Below, piece after piece: positions 9,136-13,943 of a stretch of DNA of 29,475 bases (position 1 is the first letter of the stretch; the number at the start of each line of letters is the position of its first letter). A model generated the notes under the pieces. The model searched no databases. It was not told where the DNA came from and saw nothing but the letters and a program-made list of their open reading frames with translations. This stretch comes from a virus (taxonomy: Duplodnaviria > Heunggongvirae > Uroviricota > Caudoviricetes), in IMG/VR virus record IMGVR_UViG_2778261167_000005, positions 1 to 29,475 of that record. One strand, 5' to 3'. The position numbers and the translations under genes were made by a program.

Positions 9136-9519
9136 TCAATCCCCCTGCGATCTGATCCGCCCCTTCATGTACTTCTCATACAACTCATCCAACTCTTTCA
9201 GGCGAATGGCAAAGATGCGGAGCATGTTCTGTTGCTCTTCTTCCGGTAGTTGGCGGTAGAGCTCCAGCAGACGCTGTTCGTCCGGCTTGAGGCCGTCTTT
9301 CTCATCGACATCCTCACCGAGTAACCAAGGTACCGAAACGCCAGCTGCATCAGCGATGGCCAGTGCAGATTGTTTGCTAATCCTTCCTGTTTTGAACCAG
9401 CTGGATACAGCTTGCTTACTGACACCAGCAATCTTGGCCATCTCCGTTTTGGAGAAGCCTTTATTGTTCAGTTCTGTGAGTCTCGAAATAAGACCGTCTG
9501 TCAATGTGTTTTCACTCAT
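9136..9519 (-). CDS. Prophage repressor, HTH XRE-family (RacR/CI-like, no peptidase domain)
   Basis: 127 aa from ATG 9519; HTH segment KTEMAKIAGVSKQAVSSWFK; divergent from the Cro-like gene; operators in the 97-bp intergenic region. Confidence 0.75.
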   Translation of the reverse strand: MSENTLTDGLISRLTELNNKGFSKTEMAKIAGVSKQAVSSWFKTGRISKQSALAIADAAGVSVPWLLGEDVDEKDGLKPDEQRLLELYRQLPEEEQQNMLRIFAIRLKELDELYEKYMKGRIRSQGD

Positions 9520-9616
9520 CTCATGATTGTAAATGATTGCTTTACTCTCTGATAGGGATGTATTGTTTGACACGTCAGTAAAACAATGCTTTACTTCCTT
9601 CATCTAAGGAGGTCCC
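9520..9616. promoter_or_regulatory. Immunity switch region: PR promoter plus two operators (O1 9577..9595, O2 9528..9546) and a candidate PRM
   Basis: PR: TTGACA 9567..9572, 17-bp spacer, TTTACT 9590..9595, AGGAGG RBS 9607..9612. O1 AGTAAAacaatgcTTTACT; O2 TGTAAAtgattgcTTTACT. Minus-strand TACAAT lies immediately before the repressor ATG. Confidence 0.65.
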
Positions 9617-9826
9617 ATGACTGGTATTGAAAATGCAATTCTCCGATCTGGCTCGGCCAGCGCGCTTGGCGCTTTGATCGGCGTTTCAAAAATGGCTGTT
9701 TCGCTGTGGCGCCGTAAAGGAATTCCTGCCGAACGAGTGCTACCAGTGTTTGAGGCAACCGGCGTAACGCCCCACGAACTGCGCCCAGATCTCTACCCAA
9801 ATCCCACTGACGGTTTACCAAAGTAG
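9617..9826 (+). CDS. Cro-like HTH regulator (YdaS-like)
   Basis: 69 aa, strong AAGGAGG RBS; HTH LGALIGVSKMAVSLWRRKG; first gene of the rightward operon, divergent from the repressor. Confidence 0.7.
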   Translation: MTGIENAILRSGSASALGALIGVSKMAVSLWRRKGIPAERVLPVFEATGVTPHELRPDLYPNPTDGLPK

Positions 9827-9837
9827 GAGCACTAACC

Positions 9838-10377
9838 ATGCAGACACTTACTTATCAGAATGATAGCGACATTACTCAAGGGGTAATGATAAATCGCGCT
9901 CAAGCGCGCAGGGGGCCGAGCCATGAAGATATTCGTGACGCGGTTCGCTCCTGGGCTGGCGCCGATGGCCAGGACGTAGTCACGGCTCTGATCATCGAAG
10001 AGTACCTGGCGCAAGGAGGTGATGAGATCACTTTTCCTGATGATCTCTGCCGAAAACGCCAGAAGCTGTTCCGCTTTCTGGACAACCACTTCAACAGTGA
10101 ACGGTACCGCGAGAACGTTCGCCAGCTGACTCCGGCAATCCTCGCAGTTCTGCCGATTGAATACCGCAACCGTCTGCTGCCAGAAGACAACATCATGGCT
10201 CGCCTGGCACGTATGGAGAAGGAAACCAGCGAAGCGAAGATAGCTGTCGCAATGGATGCGCCGCGTCATCAGAAGCTGAAAGAGCTGAGTGAAGGGATCG
10301 TGGAGATGTACCGCGTTGACCCTGGCTTAACCGGGCCGCTGATGGAAATGGTGCAGATGATGCTGGGGGTTGTATGA
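9838..10377 (+). CDS. YdaT-like protein (Rac YdaT family)
   Basis: 179 aa; conserved-looking segments EEYLAQGGDE and LTPAILAVLP recall E. coli YdaT; sits immediately after the Cro/YdaS-like gene as in Rac. Confidence 0.55.
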   Translation: MQTLTYQNDSDITQGVMINRAQARRGPSHEDIRDAVRSWAGADGQDVVTALIIEEYLAQGGDEITFPDDLCRKRQKLFRFLDNHFNSERYRENVRQLTPAILAVLPIEYRNRLLPEDNIMARLARMEKETSEAKIAVAMDAPRHQKLKELSEGIVEMYRVDPGLTGPLMEMVQMMLGVV

Positions 10378-10541
10378 CGGGTTCAAAAATGGCGAAAGCC
10401 GTGGTGCTCGAACACCAACGGCCTTCAGGTGCAAATGTAGAGACAAATGCAAAATCAGTATGCCCACACAATCATATTTTTACCAGTGGAAGTTCTGTTC
10501 ACTGGAACGATCTCATCGCTTTCATTTATCAGGAGGACGCA

Positions 10542-11381
10542 ATGGCCGGTGACTGGATAAAAATGCGCGCCGAGCTGCATACGCATCCGAAAATTGTCCG
10601 CATGTCGTCCGCTTTGAAAGCGGACAGATTGCGCGTTGTTGGTGGACTACATTCCGCATGGTGTCTTTTTGATGTCCATTCTACCGATGGTTTTCTTCAC
10701 GGATACACACCGGAAACTCTCGACGATTTAATCGGCTTCCCTGGCTTTGCGCGAGCAATGATTGCTGTCGGATGGCTGGAAGAAGAGGGTGAAAACCTAG
10801 TAATGCCGCGGTTTGATGTGCACAACGGACAGTCCGCCAAGCGTCGAGCACAGGATGCAGACAGGAAGAAAAAATCCCGCAAAATGTCCGCTTGTGATGC
10901 GGACAAAAAGGGGACCAGAGAAGAGAAGAGAAGAGAAGATATAAAAGATCAAAACCCAGAGAGAGAACGCGCGGGAGAAAACTCTTCCGTGGAAGTCATT
11001 TCTGGCAATGGAACTTCATCACCAACCATTCAACATCAACCGGCCGCTGAAGATTTCGGTGCTGGATGCGCGTTCGGTCCACTTGGCAAATTTCCAATCA
11101 CTGACTCCTGGGCTCCATCTCCTGATTTCGTTCGTCAGGCTGCACTCTGGGGAAAAAACGTCGGTGCAGAACCGGGTTACACCGCTGAAGAACTCCAGCA
11201 GTTCCGTGATTACTGGATCCCTGATGGCAAAGTTAAACACCAGTTGGCCTGGGAACAGACGTTTGCTGACAGCCTGTTGCAATCGCGTAGTCGAATCAAA
11301 AGGGCAAACTCTGCGGGATCGCGAGATGTGAACCGCATTTCTGAGCCAGATAAAACCATCCCAACCGGATTCAGGGGGTAA
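10542..11381 (+). CDS. Phage replication initiation protein (replisome organizer N-terminus, DnaT-like C-terminal domain)
   Basis: ATG 10542 with AGGAGG RBS; alternative upstream start 10374 overlaps the ydaT-like stop (ATGA). C-terminal ...FRDYWIPDGKVKHQLAWEQTFADSLL... is DnaT-like; internal palindromic repeats. Confidence 0.6.
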   Translation: MAGDWIKMRAELHTHPKIVRMSSALKADRLRVVGGLHSAWCLFDVHSTDGFLHGYTPETLDDLIGFPGFARAMIAVGWLEEEGENLVMPRFDVHNGQSAKRRAQDADRKKKSRKMSACDADKKGTREEKRREDIKDQNPERERAGENSSVEVISGNGTSSPTIQHQPAAEDFGAGCAFGPLGKFPITDSWAPSPDFVRQAALWGKNVGAEPGYTAEELQQFRDYWIPDGKVKHQLAWEQTFADSLLQSRSRIKRANSAGSRDVNRISEPDKTIPTGFRG

Positions 11382-11383
11382 GC

Positions 11384-11722
11384 ATGCCAAGACCAAATAC
11401 ACCAGAAGAGCAGGCGGCACTTATCCGGGTGATCATCGAAGAGGTGAAAATCCGTGGACGCTTAACCGTTAGCGAAGCATCACAGATGTTGTCGCTGCAT
11501 CGTCAGACTGCTGAGAAGTATTTCCGCGTAGCAGCCGAACGCGGCGAACTCATTCGTCACGGTCGTCTTGGATTGTTCAGGGACCGGAAGGCTGTGATTG
11601 ATTTTGATCTTCAGCGTTTTTCATACAGCTCGAGTAAGTCTGCGATTGAATTACCAGCCGATTTTCGGGGAAGCGCGGTTATGCGCCGGGTTATAGATAT
11701 CTTAGGGAGAATGCCAGCATGA
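11384..11722 (+). CDS. Hypothetical protein with predicted HTH
   Basis: 112 aa, AGGGGG RBS; segment LTVSEASQMLSLHRQTAEKYF is HTH-like. Confidence 0.5.
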   Translation: MPRPNTPEEQAALIRVIIEEVKIRGRLTVSEASQMLSLHRQTAEKYFRVAAERGELIRHGRLGLFRDRKAVIDFDLQRFSYSSSKSAIELPADFRGSAVMRRVIDILGRMPA

Positions 11723-12120
11723 AACCAACATACGAACAACTTGAACAGCAGGTGCTCGAACTGTCAGTACAGCTCGCTAACTCCGAGAGCAAGTGCAGGG
11801 AGCTGGCCGGGGTAGTTGCTGATAACACTGATTTAAAATCGCTGATTGAACAACATGCAGGCTCTATCGCTGTATGTCCTAACTGCTCACACGAAGAGCC
11901 AAGCGAAACTGACGATATCGTTGCGTTATATCGCTCACTGAAAACCCCAGCCACCGACGCTTTCCTGGCTGAAGTGCGGGTGCAGGGCGTGGAGATGTTT
12001 GCTGACTTCTGCGGTGAAGAAAACTCTGTATTCGTCGAGGCCAAGGCTTACTACCGTTCACTTGCGGATGCAGTTGAAGAGTTTGCCGCACAGCTACGCC
12101 AAGGAGCCGCGCATGAGTAA
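11719..12120 (+). CDS. Hypothetical phage protein with N-terminal coiled coil
   Basis: 133 aa, GGGAGA RBS, overlapping stop/start with neighbours. Confidence 0.5.
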   Translation: MKPTYEQLEQQVLELSVQLANSESKCRELAGVVADNTDLKSLIEQHAGSIAVCPNCSHEEPSETDDIVALYRSLKTPATDAFLAEVRVQGVEMFADFCGEENSVFVEAKAYYRSLADAVEEFAAQLRQGAAHE

Positions 12121-12589
12121 CGCAGCGACTGTTTTGGATGTGTGCTGCGGCTCCCGCATGTTCTGGTTCAACAAGCAGGACACCCGCGCCGTGTTCGCTG
12201 ATATCCGAGCCGAAGAGCACGAGCTGTGCGATGGTCGCCGCCTGGTTATCAGTCCCGACCTGATTTCCGACTTCCGTGCGTTGCCATTCGCCGACGCATC
12301 GTTTCCGGTTGTGGTGTTTGATCCACCACACCTTGAACGTGTCGGCCAAACAGCCTGGATGGGTAAAAAATACGGGCGACTGAACAAAAAAACGTGGCGT
12401 TCGGACCTGCGAGCCGGATTCAAAGAAGCTTTTCGCGTGTTGTGGCCACATGGTGTGCTCATCTTCAAATGGAACGAAACACAAATACCGGTTAGCCAGA
12501 TTCTGGCGCTTACAGACGTGAAACCGGCAATTGGCCAGCGAACTGGGAAGAACGACAAAACCCACTGGATTATCTTTGTGAAGGACTAA
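12113..12589 (+). CDS. Small class-I SAM-dependent methyltransferase (motif I LDVCCGS, motif IV DPPH); putative nucleic-acid amino-methyltransferase
   Basis: 158 aa; glycine-rich SAM motif near the N-terminus and VVFDPPH; AAGGAG RBS; start overlaps the upstream stop (ATGAGTAA). Confidence 0.6.
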   Translation: MSNAATVLDVCCGSRMFWFNKQDTRAVFADIRAEEHELCDGRRLVISPDLISDFRALPFADASFPVVVFDPPHLERVGQTAWMGKKYGRLNKKTWRSDLRAGFKEAFRVLWPHGVLIFKWNETQIPVSQILALTDVKPAIGQRTGKNDKTHWIIFVKD

Positions 12590-12748
12590 CCCATGACGAC
12601 TACCTTCGTTTTTCTGTAATCCAATGTAGTCTGGATGGTGTCACAATCGCATTGCCGAACACTCAACGTGATCAATTGTATAAAAAAAGCTCAGTCTGTG
12701 ATTGTTTATGATTAAGGGCATTGACGTTTTTTTATTGACTTGTTTTTT

Positions 12749-13381
12749 TTATTTTTTCATGACTCGTTTGGCTTTGCGTTCCATGCGGTTTAATGCCGCT
12801 CTTGAGTCGATCCGGTTCAAGTCTGCCTTACTTCGGATTAGACGTTCTTTCGGGTTCCATCCATGATCTAACTCAATTCGGAGTTGTTTCCGGATATCTG
12901 CTGATAAAGCTGCAACTTTCAGCCCTAAATCTGCGTAGAGCCTCCGGCGTTTCAACATGTATGAATCCATCATATCACTACCGAACTCCGGGTTAGAGGT
13001 CATCTCACGAAGTTCTTCTCTGACTTTCAACAATTCGATATCGATTGATTGCAAACGATAGATTAAGGTTGGTTCAAGGTACTTATATTCGCCTTTAACT
13101 GTGCTCATATCGAAATCAGGCGAGGGAACTTGTACTTCGAGACGGTCCGGATAATCCGGTTCCGGTGAGCTTGCATCGAATCCCCGATCCCAGGAAACAT
13201 CTGCACACTGACTAACGAATTTATCGAGCAGGAACACAAGTTGAACACTAATGTAAGCGCGTTCCTCTTTACGCTTTCTTATGTCGAACGCAACTTCTTT
13301 GATCAGGTTGAAACAAAGTGGAAAACCGATTGCAGCAGCACCAGCTAAAAAGCCTTGCATAGCAGGACTAAGACCGAACAT
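12749..13381 (-). CDS. Uncharacterized membrane-anchored protein (N-terminal TM helix), opposite-strand moron
   Basis: ORF on the minus strand inside a plus-strand operon; N-terminal hydrophobic segment FLAGAAAIGFPLCFNLI; lower GC; start uncertain (ATG 13381, ATG 13360 or TTG 13408), no clear SD. Confidence 0.5.
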   Translation of the reverse strand: MFGLSPAMQGFLAGAAAIGFPLCFNLIKEVAFDIRKRKEERAYISVQLVFLLDKFVSQCADVSWDRGFDASSPEPDYPDRLEVQVPSPDFDMSTVKGEYKYLEPTLIYRLQSIDIELLKVREELREMTSNPEFGSDMMDSYMLKRRRLYADLGLKVAALSADIRKQLRIELDHGWNPKERLIRSKADLNRIDSRAALNRMERKAKRVMKK

Positions 13382-13685
13382 ATGTGGACACCGAAAGAGA
13401 GCGAGCAAAGGATTATAAACGTAGTGATGGGGTGATTAAAACGCGTTGAACTGGCTGTTTTGAAATGGACTTTTAAACTTTGACTAAGGTCATTAAATCA
13501 TCGCGATTTGAAGTTTAAGCGAAAATAGTTGATGAGGGGTATTGACCTTTAGTGCTCGCCGGTGACAAGCCAACTCAGGAAGAGATTAATGATGCTGTAA
13601 GGGACGCGCGAATTACCCATCCGTGGAAATTCGCCTGGCATTGATTGATGTATAATCCCTCTCAATGTATCGAGGGGGATTATAC

Positions 13686-13943
13686 ATGTCGGACTGGAAC
13701 ATCGCAGCAAAATCGAAAGAAGAGCAGGACAAGGTTAACGTCGACCTTGCTGCCTCCGGAGTTGCGTACAAAGAGCGTCTGAACATGCCAGTTATCGCCG
13801 AGCAGGTATCCCGTGAGCAGCCAGAGCACTTACGCGAATACTTCATGGAGCGCGTTCGCTACTACCGCGAGCAAAGCCTGACGCTTCCAAAAGCATCCGA
13901 TCCGCGCTATCTGGATATGGCAGCCCAGAACGAGAAGAAGTAA
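13686..13943 (+). CDS. Small hypothetical protein (possibly the cold-shock-induced YnaE/YdfK family of Rac/Qin; uncertain)
   Basis: 85 aa, ATG 13686 with GAGGGGG RBS; preceded by a palindrome overlapping a TATAAT box. Confidence 0.45.

Follow-up and report, generated by a model that had tools for sequence, protein, structure and literature searches.

A stand-alone 158-residue methyltransferase encoded by the early-right operon of a lambdoid prophage: an unremarkable representative of a widespread family of probable phage DNA methyltransferases

We analysed a 29,475-nucleotide stretch of tailed-phage DNA (Caudoviricetes; IMG/VR record IMGVR_UViG_2778261167_000005, positions 1 to 29,475; hereafter the window) and focused on a short gene for a class-I methyltransferase, which an earlier note made from the sequence alone had picked out. 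The gene is an ordinary member of a large, catalogued but little-studied and inconsistently annotated family of phage DNA methyltransferases. Its open reading frame (ORF) is intact from the ATG start to the TAA stop, and the ATG overlaps the TAA of the ORF directly upstream (ATGAGTAA); given this overlap, the upstream gene and the methyltransferase gene are probably translationally coupled (positions of all features in Table 1). The public assembly collection contains proteins identical to the window methyltransferase in 122 blocks, and its 90%-identity cluster comprises 838 members; it is therefore a real, conserved gene. Records of the exact protein read 'MULTISPECIES [Enterobacteriaceae]' and include E. 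coli entries; cluster mates come from Salmonella and Klebsiella. Among 5,426 complete E. coli genomes only four carry a close copy (87.9% nucleotide identity), and the copy of E. coli NZ_AP021894 (L001, 7977-8454) is a frameshifted pseudogene that is followed by a reverse-strand tRNA-Ile gene.

Sequence conservation was analysed in an alignment of 65 diverse family members (A1). D9, D30, R32, P48, D70, P71, P72, H73, W95, E105, R108 and L110 are invariant, and 23 more positions are kept in at least 90% of the sequences, among them C12-G13, D53, Y87-G88, F118-K119-W120 and P138. The catalytic tetrapeptide of motif IV, D70-P71-P72-H73, is encoded by the codons GAT CCA CCA CAC, and 254 of 267 collected family proteins have DPPH. 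By analogy with the general architecture of class-I methyltransferases, D30 would be the acid that binds the ribose of S-adenosylmethionine (SAM), and mapping on a canonical class-I enzyme points to D53 as the acid of motif III. The motifs follow each other as I-II-III-IV-...-VIII, which is the gamma order of DNA amino-methyltransferases. Only one internal segment, the beta-hairpin of residues 33-45, is both hypervariable and insertion-prone (insertions after residue 40 in 27 of the 65 sequences), and it may serve as a minimal target-recognition element.

An AlphaFold2 model computed from this alignment was of high confidence (pLDDT 94.1, pTM 0.89). It has strands at residues 7-11, 26-30, 34-37, 43-46, 64-70, 110-121, 140-144 and 150-156 and helices at residues 82-87, 95-109 and 127-131 only. 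In the model, the protein stops immediately after beta7 and has no target-recognition domain (TRD), and helices are missing from the alphaA and alphaB positions, so that the predicted Rossmann fold is unusually stripped-down. Together with sub-threshold Pfam matches to Methyltransf_25/11, the only matches in that library, the model shows the class-I fold. The earlier description of the product as a 158-residue class-I methyltransferase with a DPPH motif was thus correct. The core is basic, with an isoelectric point of 9.3 (family median 8.55; 74% of the members above 7.5). When the model was compared with the PDB using Foldseek, the 30 best matches included a single DNA methyltransferase family, M.TaqI (E 4e-4, 18-19% identity), and Trm11 (6zxw/6zxv), TrmN (3tma), RsmC (3dmf) and TrmM (7wm6) scored similarly. 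In BFVD one family member stood out (TM 0.91), with all other entries far below it; cytosine-N4 DNA methyltransferases were among the weak viral structural matches. Searching PDB sequences, with the single sequence and with a profile, gave no relative.

In a second approach, we assigned the family with hidden Markov models (HMMs), the check that had been proposed along with the earlier description. General curated libraries hardly recognized the protein, and the phage and defence libraries were decisive; the models that matched there were those of DNA methyltransferases. PHROG 954 ('DNA methyltransferase') matched at 1.1e-84, and two PADLOC models covered the protein: MTase_II (PDLC03288, 'Type II methyltransferase'; 3.9e-71, residues 6-158 against model positions 3-162 of 169) and oMTase (PDLC03730, 'orphan methyltransferase'; 1.6e-47, model positions 5-152 of 153). 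These restriction-modification models of PADLOC are derived from REBASE. Since the PADLOC matches run from end to end, the window protein belongs to a methyltransferase group of about 155-170 amino acids that a REBASE-type classification already contains. The best NCBIfam match reached an E-value of 0.004 and 16.8 bits against a cut-off of 242, and neither PF05869 (Dam; at E<=1) nor PF01555 (N6_N4_Mtase) matched the window protein.

Names given to relatives point in the same direction. One entry of the 90%-identity cluster, ADC57975.1, is called 'DNA N-4 cytosine methyltransferase M.NgoMXV [Klebsiella variicola At-22]', and the name M.NgoMXV is also carried by many streptococcal members (S. 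pyogenes, S. agalactiae, S. equi, S. dysgalactiae), which are independent submissions (accession series SUN, SQF, VGR and VHB). With one of these the window protein aligned from end to end (46% identity, E 4e-55). Judged from the concordant name transfers and the REBASE-derived HMMs, the window protein very probably belongs to the M.NgoMXV-like family. Among the members listed in two cluster listings no Neisseria entry was found, and a scan of contigs with a streptococcal query returned streptococcal-type relatives only, none of them from S. iniae or Neisseria. 'NgoAXV' of strain FA1090 was rejected as an equivalent of M.NgoMXV, because it is a different enzyme (GGNNCC, 5-methylcytosine). In the literature we found nothing specific on the DPPH motif in phage methyltransferases or on methylomes that name this gene; papers on phages of group A streptococcus (GAS) and Vibrio treat prophage methyltransferases only generically.

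These assignments bear on what the enzyme methylates. A role as a protein amide or amine methyltransferase (glutamine N5, as in HemK/PrmC) or as a small-molecule methyltransferase, without any function on nucleic acids, is extremely unlikely: the similarities to such enzymes are limited to the shared Rossmann core, the NCBIfam models of HemK/PrmC did not match, and the window motif reads DPPH, not NPPY. Moreover, an invariant DPPH at the end of beta4 is a hallmark of amino-methyltransferases rather than of O- or C-methyltransferases, and both the REBASE-derived models and the DNA-metabolism context favour DNA. An RNA methyltransferase that writes N2-methylguanosine (m2G) or N6-methyladenine (m6A) on host rRNA or tRNA, similar to RsmC/RsmD, Trm11/TrmN or TrmM, and thereby alters host translation would account for the fold scores of Trm11, TrmN, RsmC and TrmM, which are near that of M.TaqI. 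The motif (D/N)PP(Y/F/H) is common to RNA m2G and m6A enzymes, with (D/N)PP(Y/F) in Trm11/TrmN and RsmC/RsmD, and an identity of about 65% between copies from Gordonia phages and the enterobacterial protein would suit a universally conserved rRNA or tRNA target. However, these structural matches are unspecific, covering about 120 residues at 12-24% identity and scoring no higher than generic class-I enzymes, and no RNA-methyltransferase family of NCBIfam or Pfam matched (RsmC/RsmD, Trm11/TrmN, TrmM). Trm11/TrmN and RsmC/RsmD carry RNA-binding or duplicated N-terminal domains, whereas the window protein is a single 158-residue domain without THUMP, PUA or any other RNA-binding domain. In addition, REBASE-derived DNA-methyltransferase HMMs match it end to end, the named prototype of the family is an N4-methylcytosine (m4C) DNA enzyme, and the genes reside in DNA replication and recombination modules, often abutting DNA methylases. 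We therefore consider RNA as the substrate very unlikely. The earlier note had proposed an orphan nucleic-acid methyltransferase that either protects phage DNA or modifies host RNA; the first option agrees with the family HMMs and names, while for the second we found no specific support.

The named prototype allows a closer comparison. M.NgoMXV is an unusual gamma-class amino-methyltransferase that methylates cytosine, and the title of a reference in the same article calls it 'atypical', with a catalytic aspartate (PMC3874165). It has been described as an orphan gamma m4C enzyme with the target GCCHR, and QMA0248_1949 of S. iniae is 95% identical to it (bioRxiv 10.1101/2019.12.17.880476). By its gene number relative to the integrase QMA0248_1936, this S. 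iniae copy lies inside prophage Phi1. Phage PH10, tried as a stand-in for Phi1, was uninformative; its methyltransferase is of the C5 type and unrelated to the family. Both M.NgoMXV (= M.NgoDCXV, GenBank AJ004687, N. gonorrhoeae MS11) and the window protein are orphans with the gamma motif order and an Asp-type catalytic tetrapeptide, and the window protein is prophage-borne like the S. iniae copy. That is, motif order, catalytic aspartate, orphan status and prophage residence all agree with the descriptions of M.NgoMXV. M.NgoMXV presumably also reads DPPH and has no TRD. It is reported, in the title of an article by Radlinska et al. (Proteins, 1999), to lie in tandem with a C5-type methylase gene, whereas the window holds no second DNA methylase.

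Other well-described enzymes resemble the window protein in part. PamA of the S. aureus prophage mPhi11 (141 amino acids) is a proven phage enzyme that carries NPPY and produces m6A at GATC (PMC12435837). Like the window protein it is a tiny prophage orphan methyltransferase that carries its tetrapeptide near residue 65-70 and lacks a recognition domain of its own (PMC12435837), but the window protein has DPPH and lacks a match to PF05869. In some family loci PF05869 was seen as a separate neighbouring gene. M.TaqI, a gamma-class N6-adenine enzyme, shows the same order of motifs I to VIII; it differs by its NPPY and by a C-terminal recognition domain of about 170 residues, which the window protein lacks completely. 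The model of the window protein also lacks the alphaA and alphaB helices of the canonical fold. Beta-class N4/N6 DNA methyltransferases (PF01555; M.PvuII, M.RsrI) perform the chemistry proposed for the window protein, but their motif order starts with IV and ends with I, the reverse of the order found here. Among the relatives, 1 of 71 gave a weak match to PF01555 (3e-4), and P0330 carries a precomputed PF01555 label.

The question of target specificity is closely tied to the genes found next to the methyltransferase in other phages. Conventional DNA methylases were the most recurrent function among the neighbour gene clusters (five clusters of C5 DNA_methylase, two of N6_N4_Mtase and one each of Dam, MT-A70 and DUF4942). 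A census by seeded phmmer of 84 loci, restricted to the same strand, found a conventional methylase nearby in at least 15; seven were directly adjacent, and six of these showed a 4-nt overlap. Coupling of this kind to a large methylase of 526-764 amino acids was seen at L002, L008, L039, L081, L082 and L088, and the large proteins are C5 DNA_methylase-like or, at L088, DUF4942-containing. In Gordonia phage Pickett (gp56-gp57, L002) and Pectobacterium phage ZF40 (gp20-gp21, L008) the large partners belong to one C5-type family, but the gene orders are opposite. The pairing resembles the tandem of M.NgoMXV with a C5-type gene. A minority of phages may thus have conserved a module of two genes, the small methyltransferase and the large C5-type methylase.

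Such modules would fit a DNA methyltransferase of relaxed or no specificity, with a broad anti-restriction effect, or one whose targeting depends on a partner such as the large C5-type methylase. M.EcoGII is a non-specific prophage methyltransferase of the former kind. The window protein ends after beta7 without a TRD and has a 13-residue hairpin as its only variable element, the family is extremely conserved across hosts with wholly different restriction repertoires, and the large C5-type family is coupled by 4 nt in Pickett, ZF40 and metagenomic loci in either gene order. Yet no partner methylase was seen in 69 of the 84 loci, the window included, so that the enzyme must act alone there. M.NgoMXV is reported to recognize a defined, though degenerate, 5-bp target, and PamA is specific for GATC with 141 residues, so that small size is no obstacle to specificity. 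On balance we regard relaxed or partner-dependent targeting, which would be a variant of the DNA-methyltransferase reading, as unlikely. The more particular version, in which the enzyme is a relaxed-specificity m4C methylase or the catalytic half of a two-protein methylase that is targeted in some phages by the coupled C5-type protein, appears distinctly unlikely; stand-alone copies could then act promiscuously or on a special substrate, for example replication intermediates.

In the window, the methyltransferase gene is surrounded by a CI-like repressor gene, a YdaT/CII-like gene, a DnaT-type initiator gene, a DUF977 gene and a gene for a theta-like protein. Beyond the theta-like gene follows a DUF1367/NinB-like gene, and in contigs with an identical cassette NinG and antiterminator genes were read further downstream. 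The locus is the early-right operon, as the earlier note had it, of a lambdoid prophage from an enterobacterium. No tRNA gene was found in the window. Using Pfam, PHROG and PADLOC, we detected no restriction endonuclease near the methyltransferase (neighbours DUF977, PHROG 492, PDC-S67 and theta-like), in line with the absence of a restriction partner that had been noted from the sequence. For the convergent ORF just 3' of the gene, PADLOC gave PDC-S67 (E 2.5e-29), the model of a single-gene candidate for phage defence. The N-terminus of its product is hydrophobic, its flanks are AT-rich and Pfam gave no match; it looks like a prophage moron or defence gene. As a candidate restriction partner it was rejected on the grounds of its PDC-S67 match, its hydrophobic N-terminus and its absence from most other loci.

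Table 1. Positions of the methyltransferase gene, its motifs and the neighbouring features in the window.
Feature	Positions	Strand	Remarks
CI-type repressor	9136-9603	-	
YdaT/CII-like gene	9838-10377		Accompanied by a YdaS/Cro-like gene
DnaT-domain replication initiator	10374-11381		
DUF977 protein	11384-11722		Followed by the 133-aa gene, then the methyltransferase
133-aa gene	11719..12120	+	PHROG 492, function unknown; operon neighbour directly upstream of the methyltransferase gene
Shine-Dalgarno AAGGAG	12101..12106	+	6 nt 5' of the methyltransferase ATG; read from the sequence
Methyltransferase gene, 158 aa	12113..12589	+	ATG start, TAA stop; intact ORF and translation
Motif I VLDVCCGS, residues 7-14	12131..12154	+	SAM-binding loop after beta1; D9 invariant, C12 and G13 in at least 90%
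D30 (end of beta2, motif II) and R32	12200..12208	+	Both invariant in A1; model strand 26-30
Beta-hairpin, residues 33-45	12209..12247	+	Entropy profile; model strands 34-37 and 43-46
Catalytic motif IV D-P-P-H, residues 70-73	12320..12331	+	End of beta4
Convergent 219-aa ORF	12749-13408	-	Just 3' of the methyltransferase; PHROG 33426 (unknown)
DNA polymerase III theta subunit homologue (HolE)	13665-13943	+	PF06440, E 6e-36
Conserved unknown protein, 84 aa	13943-14197		PHROG 17759; after the theta-like gene

In public contigs, a cassette of the DUF977 gene, the 133-aa gene, the methyltransferase gene and a convergent 210-aa PDC-S67-like gene is kept together. An identical cassette stands behind two different replication modules, with either a DnaT-domain or a lambda O-type initiator (L114-L116 versus window positions 9600-12600), an arrangement that illustrates modular exchange immediately upstream of the cassette. 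We then compared annotated phages from four bacterial phyla (Actinobacteria, Firmicutes, Bacteroidetes, Proteobacteria) and a haloarchaeal virus. The neighbours of the methyltransferase gene are early or replication and recombination genes (RecT, RusA, replication initiator, DnaC-like loader, SF3 helicase). In some prophage loci an integrase gene lies just downstream, so that the methyltransferase is part of the other early arm. These loci show a mobile cassette that is no fixture of the early-right operon.

An exhaustive HMMER scan of 1.84 billion representative sequences returned 1,968 clusters (50% identity) at E<=1e-3, of which 210 reached E<=1e-30. Using tblastn on 50,697 phage records, we found a family member in 253 phages, including two haloarchaeal tailed viruses; the hosts included Streptococcus (67), Vibrio (38), Acinetobacter (19), Porphyromonas (15), Listeria (12), Gordonia, Enterococcus and Lactobacillus (11 each) and Staphylococcus (10). 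The window protein is about 60-65% identical to copies from phages of Gordonia (H49-H58) and Corynebacterium (H47, H62, H63), 46-55% to those from phages of Firmicutes and Bacteroidetes and 33-39% to those of the haloarchaeal tailed viruses, which is unusually strong conservation for an accessory gene of phages. Short length and the lack of a partner gene, which the earlier note had singled out as if unusual, are thus the norm for a large family, and here it overstated the case.

Domain fusions were considered as a clue to the substrate and rejected: the N-terminal extensions of some database entries are mutually unrelated and mostly reflect miscalled starts, and fusions are sporadic, with one case each of DnaB_C, ASCH and DUF6291. 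Many enterobacterial relatives (P0002, P0008, P0016, P0040, P0095) are 248-251 amino acids long and share a conserved C-terminal module of about 90 residues (…HHQRRLKHHINRMWLEKMP…), for which no Pfam match was obtained in the one form scanned (P0002); the window protein ends at residue 158 and has no such module. Another relative, P0019, is a 266-residue chimera with a DndB-like N-terminus (PF14072, DGQHR) in frame with a methyltransferase that lacks motif I, probably a product of deletion or recombination. It shows that DndB-like genes associated with DNA modification can adjoin the methyltransferase upstream in some prophages.

Taken together, family HMMs, M.NgoMXV names, gamma order, DPPH and DNA-metabolism context favour a DNA amino-methyltransferase. 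With gene integrity, fold, motif conservation, HMM family membership, operon position and the lack of a nuclease partner observed, we infer, at a probability of about 0.7, that the gene product is an active orphan DNA amino-methyltransferase belonging to the M.NgoMXV-like family, which would protect phage DNA during the lytic cycle. Several points weigh against this conclusion. The curated DNA-methylase models of Pfam and NCBIfam did not match the window protein, which NCBI labels just 'class I SAM-dependent methyltransferase', and public annotations of its relatives conflict (N4-cytosine, cytosine and N6-adenine). What ties the protein to M.NgoMXV are transferred names and REBASE-derived HMMs, and at about 46% identity to the streptococcal members neither product type nor target need be conserved. 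In addition, the identity of about 65% between Gordonia and enterobacterial copies is unusually high for an anti-restriction gene and could point to a universally conserved substrate.

For a lytic DNA amino-methyltransferase, the following course of action can be proposed. SAM would be bound by motif I, D30 and D53 of the minimal class-I Rossmann domain. DPPH at the end of beta4 would accept a flipped-out base, and the methyl group would be transferred to its exocyclic amino group; the acceptor is most probably the N4 of cytosine, as in M.NgoMXV, and less likely the N6 of adenine. Sequence selectivity, if there is any, would come from short loops, above all from the hairpin of residues 33-45. 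Under control of the repressor, the methyltransferase would be silent in the lysogen and expressed together with the replication genes after induction or infection, so that newly replicated phage DNA would become methylated and protected from the restriction systems of the next host. Lytic-only expression would be expected from the repressed early-right operon and the coupling to the upstream gene.

Observations on lysogens of other species can be set beside this expectation. A lysogen of S. iniae showed no GCCHR-specific methylation (bioRxiv 10.1101/2019.12.17.880476). GAS lysogens showed no cytosine methylation, and orphan methyltransferase genes of GAS prophages gave little or no transcript, although their family identity with the window enzyme is not established. 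By analogy, both sets of observations would fit lytic-only expression. GCCHR occurs 419 times in the window when both strands are counted; if this specificity were conserved, substrate sites would be abundant in the window.

As a discovery the gene is of limited weight, since orphan DNA methyltransferases of phages are well known and REBASE-derived models already recognize the family. The family is common, with about 2,000 clusters at 50% identity and members in classic prophages of S. pyogenes, S. pneumoniae, Listeria, Klebsiella and Salmonella, and despite this abundance it has neither a Pfam or NCBIfam model nor a solved structure. Its members are among the smallest DNA-methyltransferase architectures, and how they select a target with no dedicated recognition domain is a genuine structural puzzle. 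Expression from a repressed early operon would make such enzymes invisible in the methylomes of lysogens, which is relevant wherever 'orphan methyltransferases' of prophages show no matching motif.

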